Of a stretch of DNA of 64,000 nucleotides, positions 51,815-64,000 are shown in pieces; position 1 is the first letter of the stretch; each line of letters starts with the position of its first letter. The position numbers and the translations under genes are program-made. This stretch comes from Syntrophales bacterium (lineage in GTDB: Bacteria > Desulfobacterota > Syntrophia > Syntrophales > UBA8958), in contig JAOACW010000003.1 of NCBI GenBank assembly GCA_026417625.1, forward strand, positions 147,517-211,516, in the 5' to 3' direction. The notes under the pieces were generated by a model. The model was not told the origin of the DNA and ran no database searches. It saw only the letters and a list, made by a program, of their open reading frames with translations.

Positions 51815-51837
51815 CGTAAGTGGATAGCGGTTGGAGG

Positions 51838-51853
51838 TGGCACTGCATTTGCA
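51838..51853 (+). promoter_or_regulatory. sigma-54 (-24/-12) promoter for PilZ-motA-motB operon
   Basis: TGGCACTGCATTTGCA is a near-perfect match to TGGCAC-N5-TTGCA. AAGGAGG RBS at 51871-51877 and ATG at 51888. Confidence 0.75.
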
Positions 51854-51887
51854 GGATTGTCGAAGCATGAAAGGAGGCTGCAGACAG

Positions 51888-52424
51888 ATGGAATCATCTA
51901 TCAATAATAATAGAGAGTATTCCCGAGTTTATGCCTATATACCACTTAAGTATCGCGTTGTTCCTTCCGATGAATTTCACGGGTTGTGTAGTCACATAGC
52001 AGTTGAGCCTTTTTATTTTGATACATCAATTTTGCCAGAGGTGGAAAATGCGCAGTTAGAAACATGGTTTAATCTGATCAACGAAAAATTGGATTTAATA
52101 ATTAGGCTTTTAAGGGCTCAGGCAGATGGGTTTCAATCACTGCCTTATAAGGCCGTAAATATAAGTGGGAGTGGTATCAGTTTTTCAGTTCACGAGGAGG
52201 TTCGGGTAGGTGACATTTTGGAAATAAAGATGGTTCTTTCCGATTGTAACTTTCATCCGGTATACCTGTGTGTGTATGGAGAGGTTGTCAGGGTGGAGCA
52301 TCTGACCTCTGGTTATGTTATTGCTGTCAGGTTCGTTAAAATGGATGATAGGATAAGGGATGAGATAGTGCGTTTTGTCTTTGAGCGAGAAAGGCAAATT
52401 CTCAGGGAAAGAAGAAAAGGTTAA
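51888..52424 (+). CDS. PilZ domain protein (putative c-di-GMP receptor, flagellar-brake candidate)
   Basis: REYSR (RxxxR) at residues 9-13 and NISGSG (D/NxSxxG) at 91-96, counted from ATG 51888. Beta-barrel-like C-terminus. The listed 51831 start would overlap the promoter. Confidence 0.75.
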   Translation: MESSINNNREYSRVYAYIPLKYRVVPSDEFHGLCSHIAVEPFYFDTSILPEVENAQLETWFNLINEKLDLIIRLLRAQADGFQSLPYKAVNISGSGISFSVHEEVRVGDILEIKMVLSDCNFHPVYLCVYGEVVRVEHLTSGYVIAVRFVKMDDRIRDEIVRFVFERERQILRERRKG

Positions 52425-52439
52425 ACGGGGAAAAGTACA

Positions 52440-53294
52440 GTGGTTGTGTCCATAGGTTTTGTTGTTGTTATTGTTTCTGTTGTGGGTGGTTTTCTTCTAG
52501 AGAAGGGTAATCTTTATGTGCTATTCCAGCCAGCGGAATTTCTGATAATTGGTGGCGCGGCGGTTGGGTCTTTTATCATTGCATCCCCCAAAAAAGTTAT
52601 AAAGGGGGTGCTGGAGCATACAAAGAGGATCTTCAAAAAGACAAGTTATGATAAAAATGATTACCTGGAGGCATTGCTTTTCCTCAATGGTGTGTTCTAC
52701 AAGATAAGAAAGCAAGGACTTGTGGCGATTGAGAGTGATGTGGATAACCCTGCAGGTAGTCCTCTGTTTAACCGTTACAGCTCCATAATGGGAAATGAAA
52801 GGGTCTTACATTTAGTTTCTGATACCCTCCGAATGGTTATGAGCACCACAATTGCCCCTCATGAGTTGGAGTCACTTATCGACAGTGAGATAGAAAGTCA
52901 TTATGAGGAGTTGATCTTACCTTCGAAAAGTGTGAACAGTGTTGCTGATAGCTTGCCCGGACTCGGTATAGTAGCAGCGGTGCTCGGAGTTGTGCTTACC
53001 ATGGGTAAGATGGGAGAACCACCAGAGGTGCTAGGTCACAGTATAGGTGCTGCCCTGGTGGGAACATTTTTAGGTGTTCTCCTCTGTTACGGTTTTGTAG
53101 GACCAGTGGGGCGTCATATGGAGCATATAGCCCGTGAGGAGATACGTTTTCTCACCGTTTTTAAGGTAGCACTACTCGCTTTTGTCCAGGGAGCGGCACC
53201 GAAAGTAGCACTTGAGTTTGGCAGGCGGGTTATTCCCAAAGAGGTGAAACCCACCTTCACCGAAGTGGAGGAACTCCTGCGTAAGAGTAAGTGA
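52440..53294 (+). CDS. motA: flagellar stator protein MotA
   Basis: GTG start. N-terminal TM pair, GLGIVAAVLGVV.TMG and LVGTFLGVLL.YG TM3/TM4 motifs. 284 aa. Confidence 0.92.
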   Translation: MVVSIGFVVVIVSVVGGFLLEKGNLYVLFQPAEFLIIGGAAVGSFIIASPKKVIKGVLEHTKRIFKKTSYDKNDYLEALLFLNGVFYKIRKQGLVAIESDVDNPAGSPLFNRYSSIMGNERVLHLVSDTLRMVMSTTIAPHELESLIDSEIESHYEELILPSKSVNSVADSLPGLGIVAAVLGVVLTMGKMGEPPEVLGHSIGAALVGTFLGVLLCYGFVGPVGRHMEHIAREEIRFLTVFKVALLAFVQGAAPKVALEFGRRVIPKEVKPTFTEVEELLRKSK

Positions 53295-53297
53295 CGA

Positions 53298-54110
53298 ATG
53301 GCTGAGCGCACCCCAATAATAATAAAAAAAATGAAAAAATCCCATCATGAGGAACACCACGGCAGTTCGTGGAAAGTTGCCTACGCTGATTTTGTTACGG
53401 CTATGATGGCCTTCTTTCTCCTCCTGTGGCTTCTTGCCATGATCTCCCCGGAGAAGAGGGCGGCAATGTCAGAATATTTCAGAAATTTTAATTTATTTAG
53501 AGATGTAACTACTGCAGGCTCCAAGGGTATGATGAATAAGGAAGGTCTCCTGGGCGATAAGCAGAACAGTTTGGTAAAATCGACTAATGCGATGACTGGA
53601 AGGGTGAATTCGAGGGGTGAGAAGGAGATTATTGCTGAACGGTTGAAGAAGGCGATTGATGAGAAGTTGAGGGCATACAGTGACCAAATTTACGTTGATA
53701 TAGTGGAGGGTGGTGTCCGCATTCAACTCGTGGATGCTGAGGGAAAGGAAATGTTTGCCCTAGGAAGTGCGGAACCAACGCCAAGGGCTAAGCAGATACT
53801 GAGTGTTATTGCAGAAAATATCCAAGACCTCCAGAATAAAGTCGCTATAGAGGGTCATACAGACGCGGCACCTTTCAAGAGTTCCCAGATAACTAATTGG
53901 GAACTATCCACTGCACGGGCGTCAGCGGCGAGAAGGGAACTAGAATCTAAGGGGCTTGACCCCCAAAGGATAGCCCGTGTTGTGGGTTTTGCAGATCAGG
54001 AACTATTCATTAAAGATAACCCCCGAGATCCAAGGAACAGAAGAATTAGTGTTACCATTCTAACTGGTAATCAGGGAATGGTTCCGCGATCCTCTATGAG
54101 GAATTTTTAG
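53298..54110 (+). CDS. motB: flagellar stator protein MotB (OmpA-like C-terminal domain)
   Basis: SWKVAYADFVTAMMAFFLLLW plug/TM region with the conserved Asp. C-terminal IEGHTD..P......NWELS.ARA.A peptidoglycan-binding motif. Confidence 0.92.
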   Translation: MAERTPIIIKKMKKSHHEEHHGSSWKVAYADFVTAMMAFFLLLWLLAMISPEKRAAMSEYFRNFNLFRDVTTAGSKGMMNKEGLLGDKQNSLVKSTNAMTGRVNSRGEKEIIAERLKKAIDEKLRAYSDQIYVDIVEGGVRIQLVDAEGKEMFALGSAEPTPRAKQILSVIAENIQDLQNKVAIEGHTDAAPFKSSQITNWELSTARASAARRELESKGLDPQRIARVVGFADQELFIKDNPRDPRNRRISVTILTGNQGMVPRSSMRNF

Positions 54111-54112
54111 CT

Positions 54113-54586
54113 TCATTTGGTGTCATCCCGATTTATGCACACATCCACGACAAAGGATCCAGCTTCTGTTTCGAAAGGTATTATGATACTTGGTCCTCCC
54201 AACACATGACGGATGGAGTGGTTCCTACCGGATACAACTGTTGGTATTGCTGCCATTATACTGTAACCTGCTTTTTCCAGTTTCTTTCGTGCTACCCCGG
54301 AAATCATGTTGGTAATTTCACCGACTGCGTCTCTAATGTCACCGTTCATGTTATTTATTTCTTCTCCGAGCATGTTACTTACAATGCGTAGTATCGCACT
54401 CTCGCTGAAGCTTAAAGCCAAGGATCCCCGGGCATCTCCTGCCAATCCTATGATACCGGAGATGTCACCCTGGGCTAAATTGTCTTTTTTTAGGAAGGGT
54501 TTTCCCGGTTTTGGCTCTATAAAGGCCATTGTTTTTAGAACCTCAATCGTCGCTTCCAGGAAAGGATTGATGAATTCTACGTTCAT
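54113..54586 (-). CDS. cheX: CheX-family CheY-P phosphatase
   Basis: FINPFLEATIEVLKTM start. Active-site pattern D-x3-E-x2-N (DAVGEITN) with a Pro about 22 residues later. Confidence 0.8.
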   Translation of the reverse strand: MNVEFINPFLEATIEVLKTMAFIEPKPGKPFLKKDNLAQGDISGIIGLAGDARGSLALSFSESAILRIVSNMLGEEINNMNGDIRDAVGEITNMISGVARKKLEKAGYSIMAAIPTVVSGRNHSIRHVLGGPSIIIPFETEAGSFVVDVCINRDDTK

Positions 54587-54612
54587 GATGCACCTCTATA
54601 AAATTTATGGAT

Positions 54613-54987
54613 TCAGCCGAGTATTTTGGCAATTTTTTCCTGAAGTGTCTCTGCAGTGAAGGGCTTAACGATGTAATTATTCACTCCTGCTTTAACTGCT
54701 GCGATCACGTTTTCCTGCAAGGCCTCTGCAGTTACCATAAGAAAGGGAGTTTTGCTGAGTGTAGCATCTGACCTTACTGCCTTTAATAATTCCAATCCTG
54801 TCATGTTCGGCATGTTCCAATCCGCAATTATGAAGTCGATCTGCTGGGACTTTAGGATTCTTAATGCTGAAAGTCCGTCTTCTGCTTCTACAATATTTTC
54901 GAAGCCAATCTGTCTTAGGATGTTTCTTATAACTTTCCGCATGGTGGCAAAATCATCGACCACAAGAATCTTGATATTTTTGTCCAT
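54613..54987 (-). CDS. cheY: chemotaxis response regulator CheY
   Basis: ILVVDDFATMRK, ADWNMPNMTG, MVTAEA, KPF. 124 aa single-domain REC. Confidence 0.93.
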   Translation of the reverse strand: MDKNIKILVVDDFATMRKVIRNILRQIGFENIVEAEDGLSALRILKSQQIDFIIADWNMPNMTGLELLKAVRSDATLSKTPFLMVTAEALQENVIAAVKAGVNNYIVKPFTAETLQEKIAKILG

Positions 54988-55498
54988 TTTGTGGACCTCC
55001 TTCGATTTGTATTATTGCCTTTAGATAGGCTCCACGCCCTCCGTTGAGAAATAGACAAGATTCTCCTCTGCTTTCTTCTATGTCGGTCTTTTTTACCTCT
55101 GGAAGAGAGAAAATCACTCTGGTTCGGGGAGATAAGTCTTTCAGAAACCTACCACACACCATGTTAAGTGTTTCCTTTAAACAATCCTCGATGATCGGTT
55201 CCAGTATGTCTTGGGCTTCGATGTTTATAGAATTTTCCAACATCTGTTCCACAAGTGGGCGATTACACAGCAAAGTGATGTGTCCCTGGAAAGCGCCTGA
55301 AAAGGAAATGGTCGCTTCGTACGGTAATTCTGTGTCTACTAGAGAATTCACTGTATCTTCTAGAGAGATGAAAAATGCCGTATTAAATACCTCGCGAACA
55401 GACTTTGCCAGAATTTTTGAAATAGCACTATTTAAACAGATGCTCTCCATAAATCGTGCTTTCCCGTAGGTAGATCTTTCTGCGTCTAAATCAACCAT
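54953..55498 (-). CDS. second CheX/CheC-like phosphatase-domain protein
   Basis: D-x3-E-x2-N present (EDCLKETLN) with a Pro 21 residues later. 181 aa. The 3' end overlaps the cheY start by 35 nt. Confidence 0.55.
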   Translation of the reverse strand: MVDLDAERSTYGKARFMESICLNSAISKILAKSVREVFNTAFFISLEDTVNSLVDTELPYEATISFSGAFQGHITLLCNRPLVEQMLENSINIEAQDILEPIIEDCLKETLNMVCGRFLKDLSPRTRVIFSLPEVKKTDIEESRGESCLFLNGGRGAYLKAIIQIEGGPQNGQKYQDSCGR

Positions 55499-55501
55499 CG
55501 T

Positions 55502-56347
55502 CTATAACACCTCGAATAGTTCCTGGGCCTTCGTTAATTCCTCTGCAATTTGAAGCATACACTTTTCAAGATCTTCACCAGTGAAGTTCCATGCGCGAAT
55601 AATACTTTCCTCGTTTTGGTGGGCCAGTCCATCCATGCCTCCATCGATCCCCATGAGAAGACAGATTTGGTCGGCAAGATGAACAAACGCAGGTAGCTTG
55701 GAATTTGCTTTTTTTGCTTTTTCAGGTCTGTGGTGGTAAGCGATGGCATCGTGTAGATCGGGATGAAAGTTCCAATAGATAGCGATGCGAGCACCCACTT
55801 CTGCATGGTTTATCCCTATTACATCTTCTTCAGCTGTGAGGAATGAACACTTGTTTTTCTTTATGTAATCGAATATCTTCGCCGCTGCATCCTGAATATA
55901 CTGGCCAATTACCAGTTTTCCTACATCGTGGAGAAGAGCAGCTGTGTAAAGAGACTCATCTTCCTTTCCCTGAATTCTTCTGCTTATGACCTGAGAGGCA
56001 ATTGCCACGGCTACGGCATGCTTCCAGAGGTCCTTTGCCTTGACACCATACCCTCCCTTCGATTTTGAGTAGATACTGGCTGCAGAAGCAGTCTGGATAG
56101 CACGCAGAAGATTCTTCTGCCCCAGGAAAATTATAGCATCCTTTAGGGAAGTGATCTTTTGGTGTGTTCCAAAATAAGCGGAATTGCTAATTTTTAGTAT
56201 GTTTGCCGCAATGGCCTGATCGTATTTCACAAGTTCAACCACCTCGTGTACAGAGAAATCTTCGTCACTTAACATAATGGCAACCTTGTTTGCCACGGCA
56301 GGATACGGAGGGAGTTTTTTGATGGATAGGAGGATTTTTTCCAACAT
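55502..56347 (-). CDS. HDOD domain protein
   Basis: LPPYPAVANKV..ML.D......EVVELVKYDQAIAANILKISNSAYFG ... LKDAIIFLG and LLHDVGKLV are HDOD hallmarks. Confidence 0.85.
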   Translation of the reverse strand: MLEKILLSIKKLPPYPAVANKVAIMLSDEDFSVHEVVELVKYDQAIAANILKISNSAYFGTHQKITSLKDAIIFLGQKNLLRAIQTASAASIYSKSKGGYGVKAKDLWKHAVAVAIASQVISRRIQGKEDESLYTAALLHDVGKLVIGQYIQDAAAKIFDYIKKNKCSFLTAEEDVIGINHAEVGARIAIYWNFHPDLHDAIAYHHRPEKAKKANSKLPAFVHLADQICLLMGIDGGMDGLAHQNEESIIRAWNFTGEDLEKCMLQIAEELTKAQELFEVL

Positions 56348-56349
56348 AA

Positions 56350-56832
56350 TTAGATCTCCTTAGTTTTGCCGTTTGATGAACGTATGTAACAACGACCATC
56401 GGATATATAAAGTCTCACACTCCTATTGATATTGAGTCCTGTATCCTCGGCCGCAATTAATACGTTGTTTTTCCAGAATATTCTCCTTGCCGCATTTATG
56501 TTTTTCTGACCTATCTGGAATAAGTTGTCATCGTTTATTATACTTGCACCCCCTACAATCCTGACTATCATCCTCCTTTTTTCAGCGCCAAGTTCGTAAC
56601 AGGACTTAAAAAGCATAGGAATTCCCGTGTCGGCGAACATGGCTGGAGAATCCTTTGCTTTTTCTGCATTTATTGTGGAATCCGGTAACATGTAGTGGAG
56701 AAGCCCTCCGACGCGCATCAATGGATCATAAACCACAACGGCCACACATGATCCTAGGGCATATGTGACAAGGACATCTTCCGGTTTATTACTTATTTTC
56801 ATATCACCCATGCCTACAATGATGTCGCCCAT
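56350..56832 (-). CDS. cheD: chemoreceptor glutamine deamidase CheD
   Basis: ALGSCVAVVVYDP..RVGGLLHYMLP motif. ATG 56832 preferred, because the listed start 56907 would overlap the sigma-54 promoter motif. Confidence 0.85.
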   Translation of the reverse strand: MGDIIVGMGDMKISNKPEDVLVTYALGSCVAVVVYDPLMRVGGLLHYMLPDSTINAEKAKDSPAMFADTGIPMLFKSCYELGAEKRRMIVRIVGGASIINDDNLFQIGQKNINAARRIFWKNNVLIAAEDTGLNINRSVRLYISDGRCYIRSSNGKTKEI

Positions 56833-56888
56833 TTTCCCGAAGTTTATGCGTACCAAAAGAAAAAGTAGCAAATTTTTCCATGTGATTA

Positions 56889-56904
56889 TGCAAAACGTGG
56901 GCCA
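56889..56904 (-). promoter_or_regulatory. sigma-54 (-24/-12) promoter for cheD-HDOD-cheX-like-cheY-cheX operon
   Basis: Minus strand reads TGGCCCACGTTTTGCA (GG-N10-GC), about 57 nt upstream of ATG 56832. Confidence 0.65.
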
Positions 56905-56959
56905 CAAATTGCGTAAGTTGCAACCTCAAAAGCTTAGTGTATAGTTTTACTGAGGTGAT

Positions 56960-58327
56960 TTAGAAACGTTTTATCTTTTCCACGAGGGTGGTTCGTTTGA
57001 TGTTCAGCAATTTGGCGGCCTTATTTTTGACACCTTTACACTTTTCCAGTGCCTCGAGTATGAGGGCCTTCTCGTATTCCTGGACCGTTTTTTGGAGGTC
57101 TATACCCTCTTCAGGGATGGAAAAATCTTTTATTGTGGTTTTTTCAGTTGCCGTGGAATGAAACTTCTCCGGTAGATCTTCCAGTGTGATGCTTCCCGTT
57201 TCTTTCATAACCACCAGCATCTCAATGAGGTTTTCCAGTTCTCTGACATTACCTGGCCAGGGGTAAGACATAAGGGCTTCCATTGCCCTGGGTTCTATAT
57301 GTTTCACGTTTTTCTTCTTCTGCTGGTTGAATTTTTTTAGGAAGTGGTTTGCTAGAATTGCGATATCTGTACCGCGTTCCCTCAATGGTGGGAGATGTAT
57401 GGGTATAACGTTTATGCGGTAAAATAGGTCTTCACGAAAACGCTTCTGTCTCACAAGTTCGGCAAGATCCTGATTCGTGGCAGCTATTATGCGGACATCA
57501 ACGGTCATTGTTTTTATACCACCGATGCGTTCAAACTGCTTTTCCTGTAATACTCGGAGGATTTTCACCTGAAGGGCTGGGCTCATATCTCCTATTTCGT
57601 CGAGAAATATGGTTCCACCGTCCGCAATCTCGAATCTCCCGGGTCTCGATCTTATGGCACCTGTGAAAGCCCCTTTCTCGTGACCGAATAGTTCGCTTTC
57701 CAGAAGATCCTGAGGTATTGCCGCGCAGTTGACGGTTACAAGGGGTTTATTTTTCCTATCACTGTTGTAATGAATAGCTCGGGCAACTAGTTCCTTACCC
57801 GTACCACTTTCACCCTGTATGAGAACGGTGGAGTCGGTTAGGGCTACTTTTTGAATCTTTTCAAAAATTTTTTTCATGGGTTCGCTGTAGCCTATTAGTT
57901 TTCCAAAGTCGAACTTTTCTCTGAGAGAGTCCCTTAAGAGAACGTTTTCTTCTTTCAACTGGGCATAAGATACAGCTCTGGAGAGGGTTATTTTTACTAA
58001 GTCTTCCTTGAGAGGTTTGGTGATAAAGTCAAAAGCACCCATCTTCATAGCATCAACAGCTGTCTGAATACTACCGTAACCCGTAACTACAATTACGATC
58101 TGGTCGCTTTTTGTATCTTTTATGACTTTTAGGAGCTCCAACCCATCCATGTGGGGCATTCTTAGGTCTGTGACAACTACATCAAAATTGTCCCTAAAGA
58201 AAACGTCAATGGCTTCCTTTCCATCTGCGCAAGCTAACACCCTGTAACCCCACGACTCTAGCATCTCTTTCAAGTTGTTACGGTTCAATTCGTCGTCTTC
58301 CACGACTAGTACACTTGCCCTCTTCAT
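56960..58327 (-). CDS. sigma-54-dependent response regulator (REC-AAA+-HTH), no adjacent cognate kinase
   Basis: VLVVEDDE and VVTDLRMPHMDG REC. GESGTGKE and GAFTGA. C-terminal NKAAKLLNIKRTTLVEKI HTH. ATG 58327 has a GGGGGA RBS 5 nt upstream. The listed start is 58498. Confidence 0.9.
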   Translation of the reverse strand: MKRASVLVVEDDELNRNNLKEMLESWGYRVLACADGKEAIDVFFRDNFDVVVTDLRMPHMDGLELLKVIKDTKSDQIVIVVTGYGSIQTAVDAMKMGAFDFITKPLKEDLVKITLSRAVSYAQLKEENVLLRDSLREKFDFGKLIGYSEPMKKIFEKIQKVALTDSTVLIQGESGTGKELVARAIHYNSDRKNKPLVTVNCAAIPQDLLESELFGHEKGAFTGAIRSRPGRFEIADGGTIFLDEIGDMSPALQVKILRVLQEKQFERIGGIKTMTVDVRIIAATNQDLAELVRQKRFREDLFYRINVIPIHLPPLRERGTDIAILANHFLKKFNQQKKKNVKHIEPRAMEALMSYPWPGNVRELENLIEMLVVMKETGSITLEDLPEKFHSTATEKTTIKDFSIPEEGIDLQKTVQEYEKALILEALEKCKGVKNKAAKLLNIKRTTLVEKIKRF

Positions 58328-58460
58328 TCCATTCCCCCTTATTTTCCCCGTCAACATTATGACATAATTCGTCAAGATTGTATGTGTCAAGGGAAAATTT
58401 GTGTTTTTTTTTGGCGTTGAGTCTGCGTGTATCCTTCTGTTTGAGTGATGAAAAGGTATG

Positions 58461-58476
58461 TGGTCTAAGTATTGCA
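58461..58476 (+). promoter_or_regulatory. sigma-54 (-24/-12) promoter for mcp-cheR-cheY-cheB-cheA operon
   Basis: TGGTCTAAGTATTGCA (GG-N10-GC). GGGAGG RBS at 58509-58514 and ATG at 58522. Confidence 0.65.
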
Positions 58477-58521
58477 TATGGACGGAGCATCGACTCAAAA
58501 TTTCGGCAGGGAGGTTGAATT

Positions 58522-60402
58522 ATGTTTTCTAAAATGTCTCTTGGATCGAGGATTATGGTTGGAGTTTTTCTGCTTGTGCTCATTCCGCTGATTGTTGTGG
58601 GGGGATTTTCTATTTTTAAAAGTTCAGAGATAGTGGAGAAGTTAACATCAGAGAGATCACTCGTTGCAGCAAAGAGTGTGTCCGAAACGGTTGATCGTTA
58701 CCTTACTGGAGAGATAAAGCTACTCGAGAGTTACTCCTCTGATCCGAATATCCGTATGGCAGCTGCGGGTGGTTCTGTGGATGCGGCGGATAGCATCCTA
58801 ACCAATGTCATGCAAAAGGTGGGTAAGGACTACGAGACCATCTTTGTGGCGGATAGCTCAGGGATTATAAGGGCAGATGGAGTTGGAGGAAAGTACAAAG
58901 GGATAAATATAGGGGACAGGGAATATTTTAGCAAGGCAAAGGCGGGGAAGCCCAATGTGGGCACACCGGTGAGATCTAAGGGAACGGGCAATCCTGTTTC
59001 AGTTGTTGCAGTTCCCATCTATGAAAGCGGTGGTGGTTTCGTTGGTATACTAGCTGCTGCTTTAAAAATTGATAAACTCATCGAACACGTTACGAGTGTT
59101 AGATACGGTCAGACGGGTTTCGCCTTCATGGTGGACGAGAACGGAACTTTCATAGCTCATCCTCGGAAAGAGCTGATCCTGGAGGCGAATGTAAATAAAG
59201 CCAAAGGGATGGAGACAGTTGCAGAAAAGATCAAAGGTAAAAAAGATGCCATAGTGTCATATTCGTTCGAGGGGATAAGGAAGATTGCTGGTTTATCACC
59301 TGTTGATGTCACTGGTTGGACGGTTATAGCCACGCAGAACGAGGATGAGATCTTTGCACCTTCGCGGGCAATCCGCAATGCAGTTGCCATCTCAGCCTTG
59401 GTGATACTCGTATTGTCTATTGGAGCTGCCTTTTACTTTTCTCGCACTCTATCCCGTCCTATAACGAACTCTGTTCATAAACTATCCGAGGCAACTTCCC
59501 AGATGGCTTTGGCTTCTAGTCAGGTGAACACTTCAAGCCAGTCCCTTGCTGAAGGGGCTTCAGAGCAGGCATCGTCATTGGAAGAGACCTCTGCCTCTCT
59601 GGAGGAGATGGCAGCTATGACAAGACAGAATGCCGATAACGCCAGCCAAACCAAGGTGATGATGGATGAGGCTCGTAAAATCGTGCAGCGTGTCAATGCC
59701 CACATGGAGGAAATGGGAACGGCAATTGCGGAGATCAAGCGCACCAGTGAGGAAACCTCAAAGATAATCAAGACCATTGATGAAATCGCATTTCAGACGA
59801 ACCTTTTGGCTCTCAACGCAGCTGTGGAGGCTGCGCGCGCTGGAGAGGCAGGTGCTGGTTTTGCTGTGGTGGCAGATGAGGTGAGGAATCTTGCCCTCAG
59901 GGCTGCAGAAGCGGCTAAAAATACGAGTAACCTCATAGAGAATACTGTCAAAGCGGTGAAGAGAGGAAGCGAGCTTACAGCTGCAACGAAGGAGGCCTTT
60001 GAAGAAAATATGGCTATCGCTAACAAAATTGGTCAACTGATTGACGAAATTGCAACGGCCTCACAGGAACAGGCGCAGGGTATCGAGCAGGTATCAAAAG
60101 CTGTAGTGGAGATGGATAAGGTGACACAGCAGACCGCTGCTCAAGCGGAAGAAACTGCATCCGCTGCGGAGGAGATGAACGCTCAGATCATGCAGGTGAA
60201 AAATGTTTCTGAAGAGCTTATGCGCTTAGTTGGGGGACGACAAAATGGGTTAGGTGAGAGTTTGCCGCTTCTCACACAAGATCAATTCTCCGTCAAGAAA
60301 AAGGTTTTCTCTCTGCCGGGTGTGAAGAGAAGTAAGGATGAAGGTTTAAAGTCTGTGACAGTTGCGGCACCTTCAACGGGTGAATTTCGTGATTTCCATT
60401 GA
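58522..60402 (+). CDS. methyl-accepting chemotaxis protein with Cache-type periplasmic domain
   Basis: TM1, a periplasmic region of about 260 aa (Cache-like), TM2, HAMP, and the highly conserved signalling hairpin [40 protein letters not shown]. Confidence 0.93.
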
Positions 60403-60417: not shown

Positions 60418-61242
60418 ATGTTCAACATTGAGCTTTCCGATAGTGATTTCGAAAAGATCAGTCGTTTTGTTTACGACTACTGTGGGATCTATTTGCATGA
60501 GGGAAAACGGGAGTTAATAAAAACTCGGCTGGGTAAAAGGTTGAGGGCGGGAAATTTCAAGTCTTTTGCGGAGTACTACAGATATGTAACTTCCCCACAG
60601 GGAGCGGATGAACTGATTGCGATGATCGATGCCATATCGACGAATCTTACCTATTTCTTCAGGGAAGAGAGGCATTTTCAGAAATTAATGACGATAGTTA
60701 CCTCCCTTTATCTAAATGGTGGACGTAGCTGGGGGATAAAGATATGGAGTGCTGGCTGCTCTACGGGTGAAGAGGCTTACACCATTGCCATCTGTTTGAA
60801 GGAGTGTTTGGGGCTAAAACCGGTAAGCATAAAGATTTTAGCTACGGATATATCCACCCAGGCTTTGAAAACAGCGGTAACAGGTATCTACCCTATGGAA
60901 AAAGTGCAGAAAGTGCCCCACGAGATACTGCGCCGTTACTTTCAGTACGGTCAGGGCAGCTTCGAGGGGTACGTTCGTGTGAAGGATGAGATAAAGAATC
61001 TTGTGGAATTCCGTCGCTTTAACCTCATAGATGAGCCCCCTTCTGACTTTAGGTTCGATATCATCTTCTGTCGGAACGTAATGATTTATTTCGATCGGGA
61101 AACACAGGCTACCCTTGTTAGTAGATTGCATCGTTGCTTGAATAAAGGGGGATTCCTTTTTGTTGGACATTCGGAGAGCCTATCGGGTCTAAAGCACCCA
61201 TTTCGTTATGTGGAACCAGGTGTCTACAAAAAGGATCGTTAA
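60418..61242 (+). CDS. cheR: chemotaxis protein methyltransferase CheR
   Basis: TNLTYFFRE, IWSAGCSTGEE.YT, ATDIS, IFCRNVMIYFD motifs. Confidence 0.93.
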   Translation: MFNIELSDSDFEKISRFVYDYCGIYLHEGKRELIKTRLGKRLRAGNFKSFAEYYRYVTSPQGADELIAMIDAISTNLTYFFREERHFQKLMTIVTSLYLNGGRSWGIKIWSAGCSTGEEAYTIAICLKECLGLKPVSIKILATDISTQALKTAVTGIYPMEKVQKVPHEILRRYFQYGQGSFEGYVRVKDEIKNLVEFRRFNLIDEPPSDFRFDIIFCRNVMIYFDRETQATLVSRLHRCLNKGGFLFVGHSESLSGLKHPFRYVEPGVYKKDR

Positions 61243-61274
61243 AGGAGGATTATCGACACGGAAGGAGATTGTTA

Positions 61275-62752
<1,478 letters not shown>

Positions 62753-62754
62753 TT

Positions 62755-64000
62755 ATGGAACTTAAGAATCTCCTGAGCCTTATAAATGGTTTGGTTGCGG
62801 ACTTTCTCTGCTTGAACGGGAGGGAAATAGATATTCCGTCTTCCGGCAGATTTCTCAATGTGTTGGAAGAGATGTCAAAAATTGCAAGGGAGATGCGATA
62901 TAGCACCTTAAACAGAGTTTCTGAGTTGTTAATACATCTCCTGGAGAGGCTCATTTTAGAAGAGGTCAAAGAAAAACAGAGAGGTTTTGAGGTATTTGAA
63001 AAAGGGGTTTCTCTACTGCAGGAGATAGGACAGGTTCTTGAAAGGGGCGAGGATTTTGCGGATGAGGAAAGGATCAGGACGTATGTAAATTCTGTTAAAG
63101 AGCTTACGGGTGGTATTGCTGAAGTTGAGGAGCCCAGTCACTGCGACAGAGCTTTTGATGAGGGTGGTTCTGAGGTGAGAACGGAACCCCTCCATTCCTA
63201 CATTCACCAGGACACGACCCTTTTGAGTGATTTTATCACGGAAGCTCTGGAATACATAGGGAATATCGAGATAAGTATTTTGGATCTGGAACAGAATCCT
63301 CACGATAAAGATTGCATTAACGCTATCTTTCGTCCTTTTCATTCCATAAAAGGTGTAGCAGGATTCCTTGGTCTGGCCAACATTCGTGATCTTGCCCATT
63401 CTCTGGAGAATCTACTGGATAAGGCAAGAAATGATGAGCTCACTATTACACCCTCAGTAATAGATGTTGTGCTTGATGGAACAGATTTATTGAAGGGTTT
63501 GATTCTCAAATTACGGGATGAAATGAGCGGAAAGGCTTTCTCGGGTGGTGAGGACGTTGGAGACTTCCAGGAGATCATGGAGCGCATCAGGAGTGTGGAA
63601 AATGGCATGGTGGAACCTGCCGGTGCGAAAAGGCTGGGAGAGATACTACTGGAGGAAGGTGTAATAGATCAAGAAAAGTTGGATGTCGGACTGAAAAAGC
63701 AGAGTGTGAGTCCCGGTAAGAAAATAGGAGAAGTGCTCATTGAAGAAAAATTGGTGACACCCAAACAGGTTTCCCGTGCTTTACGAAAACAGGCCGAGTA
63801 TTCTGAAGATATGTCCACCATTCGTGTGGATACGAGAAAGCTGGATGACGTTATTGATTTGGTTGGCGAGCTTGTAATCACTAAAACTATGCTTGAACAA
63901 GACCTGAGGCATTTGCTCACTACAGATAGAAACATCATACGAGATATGGGACAGCTCAATCGCATTACCTCTGGGTTGCAGAGGATGACAACGGGTCTAC
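62755..64000 (+). CDS. cheA: chemotaxis histidine kinase CheA, 3' end cut by window edge
   Basis: Not in the ORF track (runs off the window). My hand translation is open from ATG 62755 to the end. HPt motif FRPFHSIKGVAGFLG (His codon 63340-63342). Dimerisation-domain start STIRVDTRKLDDVIDLVGELVI at about 63820. Confidence 0.88.
   Translation, partial: MELKNLLSLINGLVADFLCLNGREIDIPSSGRFLNVLEEMSKIAREMRYSTLNRVSELLIHLLERLILEEVKEKQRGFEVFEKGVSLLQEIGQVLERGEDFADEERIRTYVNSVKELTGGIAEVEEPSHCDRAFDEGGSEVRTEPLHSYIHQDTTLLSDFITEALEYIGNIEISILDLEQNPHDKDCINAIFRPFHSIKGVAGFLGLANIRDLAHSLENLLDKARNDELTITPSVIDVVLDGTDLLKGLILKLRDEMSGKAFSGGEDVGDFQEIMERIRSVENGMVEPAGAKRLGEILLEEGVIDQEKLDVGLKKQSVSPGKKIGEVLIEEKLVTPKQVSRALRKQAEYSEDMSTIRVDTRKLDDVIDLVGELVITKTMLEQDLRHLLTTDRNIIRDMGQLNRITSGLQRMTTGL
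63631..63792 (+). other. MshEN / T2SSE_N-like tandem motif inside CheA (candidate c-di-GMP-binding module)
   Basis: RLGEILLEEGVIDQEKLDVGLKKQ, then SVSPGK, then KIGEVLIEEKLVTPKQVSRALRKQ. The first copy fits RLGxx(L/V/I)(L/V/I)xxG(L/V/I)(L/V/I)xxxxLxxxLxxQ at every fixed position. Confidence 0.5.

Follow-up and report, generated by a model that had tools for sequence, protein, structure and literature searches.

A predicted MshEN_N module in the P2 position of a Syntrophales CheA, a candidate for direct c-di-GMP input to the chemotaxis kinase

Introduction

Cyclic diguanosine monophosphate (c-di-GMP) reaches flagellar behavior through PilZ proteins whose targets are receptors, CheR or the motor, where YcgR-type PilZ brakes act on MotA/FliG. 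We know of no documented case in which c-di-GMP acts on the chemotaxis kinase CheA itself. Here, we analyze a cheA gene at the end of a 64,000-nucleotide stretch of a Syntrophales bacterium genome (GenBank assembly GCA_026417625.1, contig JAOACW010000003.1, positions 147,517 to 211,516), the whole of which is referred to below as the window. Between its P1 and P3 domains, the encoded CheA carries a 54-residue segment that resembles the N-terminal subdomain (MshEN_N) of MshEN, a domain that binds c-di-GMP. The motif of this domain, RLGxx(L/V/I)(L/V/I)xxG(L/V/I)(L/V/I)xxxxLxxxLxxQ, occurs as two tandem 24-residue copies joined by a short spacer, and was first defined on V. cholerae MshE (PMC5013675).

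Fusions of MshEN_N to chemotaxis proteins have been catalogued before. A supplementary table of Wang et al. (2016) includes, on bioinformatic grounds only, a CheA–MshEN_N fusion in which P2 is still present (PMC5013675). In this Aeromonas CheA, as in the window, MshEN_N lies directly N-terminal to P3, and a link between c-di-GMP and chemotaxis was predicted from it. It differs in keeping the P2/CheY-binding domain and in having a degenerate first motif (MLG…) and a long spacer (PMC5013675), whereas the window CheA has no P2, a fully canonical first motif and an extra N-terminal helical bundle. The range stated by Wang et al. was 'Actinobacteria, Proteobacteria', while the P2-less form described here is also found in Planctomycetota and Hydrogenedentota. 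A second fusion, Geobacter lovleyi Glov_2742, joins MshEN_N to chemotaxis within the Deltaproteobacteria with the layout (MshEN_N)2-CheX (Wang et al., 2016, Supplementary Table 4). Its partner, however, is the CheY-P phosphatase CheX rather than the kinase, and no MshEN motif was found when the window's two CheX-family genes were searched for such a fusion.

Other c-di-GMP inputs to chemotaxis include PilZ-containing chemoreceptors such as Cbp1 (PMC6454048) and the MapZ–CheR1 adaptor (Xu et al., 2016). Together with the YcgR-type brakes, these systems resemble the one proposed here in coupling the level of c-di-GMP to flagellar behavior, and the window itself has a PilZ gene adjoining motAB. 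They differ in that their PilZ domains act on receptors, a methyltransferase or the motor, while the putative sensor of the window CheA is an MshEN_N built into the kinase.

Outside chemotaxis, V. cholerae MshE (5HTL) has the same two 24-residue motifs in a four-helix bundle, with all ligand-contact positions alignable to the window segment, but it has an additional α/β subdomain (MshEN_C), and what the domain controls there is the ATPase of a type IV pilus rather than a histidine kinase. The GSPII-B and GSPII-C domains of T. thermophilus PilF (8PDK, 8PFA, 6F8L; PMC11731258) give the best PDB sequence matches to the segment; GSPII-B shares a Lys at motif position 1, and GSPII-C a longer spacer. 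In contrast to CheA, PilF is a pilus and DNA-uptake ATPase with three tandem full GSPII domains, including their C-subdomains. E. coli NfrB offers a case in which MshEN allosterically controls an enzyme other than a secretion ATPase: c-di-GMP, reported to bind via the MshEN domain, activates the glycosyltransferase domain (PMC10118264), and PLG at position 1 and a non-Gly position 10 are tolerated. NfrB differs from the window CheA in its glycosyltransferase output, in its attachment to the membrane and in having a complete MshEN domain, placed at the C terminus.

Results

The cheA open reading frame (ORF) begins with an ATG at position 62755 of the forward (+) strand, and the window end cuts it after 415 codons (62755..64000, residues 1–415). 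Residues 293–346 of the product (63631–63792, +; 54 residues) read RLGEILLEEGVIDQEKLDVGLKKQ-SVSPGK-KIGEVLIEEKLVTPKQVSRALRKQ. This sequence divides into MshEN_N motif 1 (residues 293–316, 63631..63702, helices α1–α2), the six-residue spacer SVSPGK (residues 317–322, 63703..63720) and MshEN_N motif 2 (residues 323–346, 63721..63792, helices α3–α4), with the modeled α4 extending to residue 354 (nucleotide 63816). An initial annotation of the window had read the same residues as a tandem MshEN-like motif, and re-checking against the motif of Wang et al. (PMC5013675) returns an identical sequence and the same tally of departures. Copy 1 fits all fixed positions (11/11), while copy 2 fits 7/11 and departs at exactly four, where R becomes K (K323), L becomes I (I324), G becomes K (K332) and L becomes V (V339); the spacer is indeed six residues long rather than five. 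The K, I and V substitutions are conservative, with K332 standing at the turn Gly, and apart from K332 both copies satisfy the published relaxed motif. V. cholerae MshE, by comparison, has a five-residue spacer, with Arg and Gly at the positions of K323 and K332. When all six frames of the 64-kb window are scanned for the relaxed motif that Wang et al. published, the CheA site is the only match.

The initial annotation had proposed both an MshEN profile and Pfam T2SSE_N as checks on the segment, and only the first recognizes it. NCBIfam NF053729.1 (c-di-GMP_motif, MshE-related), a dedicated MshE-type model, is matched over model positions 1–53 of 53 at residues 293–346, with a score of 54.7 bits where the curated cutoff is 38 (E = 6.5e-15 in the CheA fragment and 1.1e-16 when the segment is searched by itself), with weaker matches of the segment to the MshEN region of NfrB-type glycosyltransferase models. 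T2SSE_N (PF05157) has no match in the CheA fragment even at E ≤ 10. We do not count this miss against the segment, since the model starts no earlier than helices α3/α4 of the bundle and lies mainly over the C-terminal subdomain (PMC5013675 supplement alignment), which this CheA lacks. In a phmmer search of all PDB sequences, the 68-residue segment finds no matches other than type IV pilus ATPase N-domains, namely those of T. thermophilus PilF (7e-12), Geobacter PilB and V. cholerae MshE (5HTL, 5.6e-4). A profile built from 37 CheA-embedded copies matches PilF (1.6e-22), PilB (4e-10) and MshE (2e-9) in the PDB, and nothing else significantly.

The predicted structure points the same way. The 415-residue fragment was modeled with AlphaFold2 (AF2) without templates, from 54 aligned sequences, with a mean predicted local distance difference test score (pLDDT) of 86.9. 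Within the segment, the model has helices at residues 294–300, 306–318, 324–330 and 336–354 (block pLDDT ~86–94), and the segment modeled alone reaches a pLDDT of 79.3. When the segment model is compared with the PDB by Foldseek, the top 16 matches are all MshEN-type domains. The best is 5HTL (5htl_A, MshE with c-di-GMP; TMq 0.74, root-mean-square deviation (rmsd) 1.1 Å over 58 columns, 31% identity, probability 1.00), and the rmsd is 1.3 Å to ligand-bound PilF GSPII-B, 2.3 Å to apo PilF and 2.3 Å to the non-binding PilB N-domain of Xanthomonas (X. citri; 17% identity). Where the initial annotation had named a disordered linker as the outcome that would count against it, a paired four-helix bundle is predicted, one that in the model appears superposable on solved MshEN structures.

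The segment sits between P1, which ends at residue 282, and P3, which begins near residues 354–360. P1 is an Hpt domain of five AF2 helices (residues 154–282, 63214..63600, +; Pfam Hpt 56 bits at residues 156–245) with the phospho-accepting His196 within FHSIKG (63340–63342), and its model lies at a Foldseek rmsd of 1.6 Å from T. maritima CheA P1 (1tqg). Only 10 residues separate its fifth helix from the MshEN_N bundle. On the other side, the P3 dimerization domain (H-kinase_dim, PF02895, 56.6 bits at residues 354–411) occupies residues 354–415 (63814..64000, +) up to the cut at the window end, with AF2 helices at residues 360–383 and 392–414 that follow a short low-confidence break at residues 352–357. 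The initial annotation had recognized no P2 in this protein, and that view is borne out: Pfam finds no P2/CheY-binding domain in the CheA fragment at E ≤ 10, and the AF2 fragment model has no β-strands and therefore no P2. Since PF05157 is not matched, β-strands are lacking and α4 runs directly to P3, the segment is assigned as MshEN_N only, a category that Wang et al. also used for such proteins (PMC5013675). Judged from the profile matches and the model together, the segment is a genuine MshEN_N-type module inside CheA, without MshEN_C. The initial observation is thus confirmed, and its interpretation is supported as far as computation reaches.

Ahead of P1, residues 1–118 (62755..63108, +) form an N-terminal helical bundle (AF2 pLDDT ~95) that is conserved in orthologues and has no family in Pfam or NCBIfam; a low-confidence, disordered linker follows at residues 128–151. 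As two HxxKG Hpt domains are frequent among related CheA clusters, the bundle may be a His-less Hpt remnant, but its comparison with Hpt by hhalign is not significant (probability 2%, E = 0.022). Past the end of the window, full-length orthologues continue into P4 (HATPase_c) and P5 (CheW-like), to a total of ~725–740 residues; among them are those of a syntenic locus (L001) and of Desulfacinum infernum (L063, 742 residues).

The survey of orthologous CheA proteins that the initial annotation had proposed found the insert in all 115 homologues with sequence covering the region (115/115). These proteins are at most 52% identical to the window CheA and come from Syntrophales, Desulfobacterales and other 'Deltaproteobacteria' metagenome-assembled genomes (MAGs). 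The nearest CheA across all collections is 52–61% identical to the window CheA. Residue conservation was counted over 88 distinct orthologue segments. Within motif 1, no segment departs from G295, L298 or G302, L313 is found in 87/88, and position 1 is K in 65, R in 11 and P in 11 segments. Within motif 2, G325, A342 and L343 never vary, R344 and Q346 each recur in 87/88, and 87/88 segments have K or R at position 323. Motif 1 has L or V at position 17, where V, I or L occurs in motif 2, and Pro320 of the spacer is nearly invariant. Averaged as the frequency of the majority residue, the insert (0.71; motif 2 alone 0.80) is about as conserved as Hpt (0.78) and P3 (0.74), compared with 0.31–0.45 for the linkers.

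The P2-less CheA–MshEN_N layout is widespread and not unique to the window. A profile spanning MshEN_N and P3 was searched against GTDB species genomes and 1.84 billion cluster representatives. Among the GTDB genomes, counting only matches that start within the first ten profile positions, upstream of the first motif, there are 80 loci in Thermodesulfobacteriota, Planctomycetota and Hydrogenedentota, including Smithella, Syntrophus, Desulfobacterales, Syntrophobacteraceae, Syntrophorhabdus and the cultured Desulfacinum infernum DSM 9756 (L063). The cluster representatives yield 12,805 matches at E ≤ 1e-3 and 73 at E ≤ 1e-30, and in ~116 of the best 150 representatives (50%-identity clusters) a single alignment runs across MshEN_N and P3. 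When 55 representatives were scanned against domain libraries, NF053729 and P3 were found in 55/55, Hpt in 51–52, HATPase_c in 52 and CheW in 51, with a weak Pfam P2 match in one and a receiver domain in none. The window CheA belongs to a CheA–MshEN_N class that was catalogued in 2016 and is experimentally uncharacterized, and represents its P2-less form.

Discussion

How could such a segment bind c-di-GMP? The residue roles described for 5HTL (PMC5013675) can be transferred to R293, L294, G295, L309, L313 and Q316 of motif 1 and to K323, I324, G325, V339, L343 and Q346 of motif 2, which are the contact residues retained in the window CheA; most are conserved across the 88 orthologue segments, Q316 being the exception. 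On this basis, a single c-di-GMP molecule would span both motifs. The guanines would be recognized at their Hoogsteen edges by the backbone amides of G295/E296 and G325/E326, with base stacking left to R293 and K323. Two hydrophobic platforms would be built from L294, L309, L313, I324, V339 and L343, and Q316 and Q346 would grip the ribose-phosphate. That an N-subdomain suffices in isolation is known from VcMshE (dissociation constant (KD) 350 nM) and from PilF 159–221 (KD 54 nM) (PMC11731258).

By analogy with published binders, each deviation from the motif appears tolerable singly. Binding at 6 nM is seen for PilF GSPII-B, whose position 1 is Lys; the consensus has been widened to (R/K/L)LG, and K or L at this position is compatible with nanomolar binding. 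GSPII-C, in which one motif opens with Pro and the spacer is longer, binds at ~460 nM (PMC11731258). The Gly at position 10 is missing from one motif of NfrB and of M. xanthus PilB (PMC5013675 supplement alignment), and the latter is also reported as a c-di-GMP binder (PMC11731258). From the sequence and the model, we consider it likely that the segment binds c-di-GMP.

The proposed route from binding to kinase output draws on three features. In the AF2 model, α4 is nearly continuous with the first P3 helix, and α1 is tied to P1 by ~10 residues; in PilF, the first helical turn of α1 unwinds once ligand is bound (PMC11731258). These lead us to propose that ligand-induced ordering and unwinding at α1 would alter the access of P1 to the P4 catalytic domain and to CheY, and that the output of the kinase would thereby become c-di-GMP-dependent. 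The chances that c-di-GMP affects the kinase are about even. The sign of such an effect is weakly suggested to be inhibition, in which case high c-di-GMP would give less CheY~P and fewer reversals, acting alongside the PilZ protein encoded at motAB. On the whole, we lean toward a genuine MshEN_N module that would let c-di-GMP act directly on CheA.

Several points weigh against this reading. The Gln that closes motif 1, Q316, is present in only 13/88 orthologue segments, and at the equivalent position of PilF the Q190E substitution costs ~160-fold in affinity (PMC11731258); the analogy suggests that binding across the family may be weaker or of a different geometry. Lys332 at the α3–α4 turn Gly, Val339 in place of Leu and a six-residue spacer occur together here, and the MshEN_C subdomain is absent along with its Asp contact. 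Given the short length of the domain, the Foldseek E-values are weak (0.012). No GGDEF, EAL or HD-GYP motif was found in the 64-kb window; near orthologous cheA genes, a crude regular expression (regex) detects such motifs in 9/80 loci, or ~1 per 90 kb, and we judge c-di-GMP turnover genes there to be not clearly enriched, with no background rate behind that judgment. The direction of the proposed effect derives solely from the general rule that high c-di-GMP suppresses motility. Lastly, full-text literature searches returned no binding or activity experiment on any CheA–MshEN_N protein.

Some of these points would be expected if the MshEN_N fold had been kept while nucleotide binding was lost, leaving a rigid spacer above P3 or a docking surface for CheY, in replacement of P2, or for a PilZ-type adaptor. 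There are precedents for both steps. XpsE/GspE of Xanthomonas has the fold and has lost binding (PMC5013675), and the degenerate PilB N-domain of Xanthomonas binds PilZ in such a manner, its X. citri PilB-N/PilZ complexes (7lkm, 7lkn, 7lko) being among the Foldseek matches of the segment. The segment also occupies the slot of the CheY-docking P2, Q316 is poorly conserved among orthologues and the turn Gly of motif 2 is replaced. However, the RLG/G and Leu positions are gone from XpsE and P. aeruginosa PilB, neither of which binds (PMC5013675 supplement alignment), while the window CheA keeps 20/22 fixed positions as identical or conservative residues, the exceptions being K332 for the turn Gly and K323 for Arg; a Lys at the latter position occurs in a 6 nM binder (PMC11731258). 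Moreover, the Gly at position 3 of both motifs is invariant (88/88), with no obvious structural need for it beyond ligand contact, and the model lies nearer to ligand-bound MshE (rmsd 1.1 Å) than to the X. citri PilB N-domain (2.3 Å, 17% identity). Loss of binding with retention of the fold is, on this balance, rather unlikely.

The module could alternatively sense another cyclic dinucleotide, for instance 3′,3′-cyclic GMP-AMP (3′,3′-cGAMP), which has been reported in deltaproteobacterial lineages. The relatives of this CheA are found in Thermodesulfobacteriota, VcMshEN does bind cGAMP (KD 3.3e-4 M; PMC5013675), and the title of PMC8844925 names c-di-GMP and 3′,3′-cGAMP together for Myxococcus. 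Yet the affinity of VcMshE for cGAMP is ~660-fold below that for c-di-GMP (PMC5013675), and the Gly-3 backbone arrangement that selects guanine O6/N7 is kept in both half-sites. The two motifs are near-symmetrical, which fits a symmetrical ligand, and the PilZ neighbor points toward c-di-GMP signaling. Specificity for a ligand other than c-di-GMP thus strikes us as quite improbable. Chance resemblance within a flexible, charged P1–P3 linker might be argued from the lack of a Pfam T2SSE_N match, with DUF4388 (20 bits against 25) as the sole, sub-threshold Pfam signal, and from reports of P2-less CheAs with an unstructured Hpt–P3 region (PMC10782961), but we exclude it as next to impossible given the NF053729 match across the full model (E = 6.5e-15), the uniqueness of the site in the six-frame 64-kb scan, the four-helix bundle predicted at high pLDDT, the profile and Foldseek matches in the PDB and a conservation on par with the catalytic domains.

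If c-di-GMP does act through the segment, the module would step into the regulatory position left vacant by P2. More broadly, CheAs with MshEN_N might be the first case of a chemotaxis kinase under direct gating by a second messenger, either c-di-GMP or a related dinucleotide, that switches P1 delivery or autophosphorylation; we advance this generalization tentatively, as it falls somewhat short of an even chance. Such direct control of CheA, predicted since 2016, would be mechanistically new, and with at least ~116 clusters at 50% identity in three phyla it would amount to a major overlooked input route into chemotaxis. Pfam-based surveys of CheA miss the module because Pfam has no N-subdomain model. 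A 2023 survey of CheA architectures makes no mention of MshEN or c-di-GMP and calls the Hpt–P3 region of P2-less CheAs unstructured (PMC10782961), a blind spot that the present analysis exposes. The window provides a clean example, in that its CheA has a canonical first motif and lacks P2 and that motAB has a PilZ gene next to it, and since the family includes the cultured Desulfacinum infernum DSM 9756, whether a CheA reads c-di-GMP directly becomes a testable question.

Genomic setting and related proteins

The PilZ gene lies at 51831–52424 (+; the annotated TTG start is uncertain), followed by motA (52440–53294, +) and motB (53298–54110, +). The initial annotation had described it as fused into the motAB operon; it is instead a separate ORF, 16 nt upstream of motA. 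Pfam PilZ is matched at 38 bits against a cutoff of 22.5, and both motifs, REYSR (RxxxR) and NISGSG (NxSxxG), are intact in the translation. The product may serve as a brake or clutch that responds to c-di-GMP, in the manner of YcgR or MotI, and given its intact motifs and its place before motA, the organism probably uses c-di-GMP at the motor too.

Four operon genes precede cheA on the same strand: a methyl-accepting chemotaxis protein (MCP) with a dCache domain (58522–60402, +), cheR (60418–61242, +), a CheY-like receiver (61269–61697, +) and cheB (61697–62752, +), with a gap of 3 nt between the cheB stop and the cheA ATG. The syntenic orthologous locus L001 has the order MCP-cheR-receiver-cheB-cheA-cheW and a 738-residue CheA with Hpt, P3, HATPase_c and CheW domains, and because of this synteny the window operon most likely continues in the same way downstream of cheA. 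Between motAB and the che operon lies a dense accessory chemotaxis block on the reverse strand (54113–58498, −). Besides CheX (157 residues) and CheY (124 residues), it encodes a divergent CheX paralogue-like protein of 181 residues, from a gene that overlaps cheY by 35 nt, together with an HDOD protein, CheD and a sigma-54 receiver/activator. The GC content of the window is 44.5%. Neither CheB nor CheY of the window has an identical entry in the gene index searched, which suggests a sparsely sampled lineage, and the best matches tentatively place it as a Syntrophales-related member of Thermodesulfobacteriota.

Some orthologous loci have regex matches for c-di-GMP turnover motifs near cheA. 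In L033, L038, L063 (Desulfacinum infernum) and L064 (Syntrophobacteraceae-type), a GGDEF-motif ORF of ~560–605 residues lies downstream of cheA on the opposite strand, at a distance of ~1.5 kb in L033, L063 and L064, and in L004, L022, L024 and L054 an HD-GYP-motif ORF lies within 6 kb of cheA.

Two sub-threshold Pfam matches of the segment, to DUF4388 (20–24 bits against a cutoff of 25) and to FumaraseC_C, were set aside as uninformative. The weak DUF4388 signal covers CheA residues 294–351 (profile positions 33–77) and is also present in 5/55 of the related CheAs; part of DUF4388 may be a related helical module. In several homologues, more than one MshEN_N stands in tandem before P3 (L053, L061, L062, L075 and L076 from 'Deltaproteobacteria bacterium' MAGs, and L079 and L080 from Hydrogenedentota). 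These CheAs are 840–950 residues long with three to four or more motifs, which suggests that the sensor module has been duplicated in some members of the family. The proteins that outscored the CheAs against the profile are of a different kind: eight cluster representatives (P0121–P0125, P0129, P0135 and P0138) of ~780–1180 residues have 6–12 MshEN_N motifs each, arranged in three blocks, and no P3 or Hpt motif.

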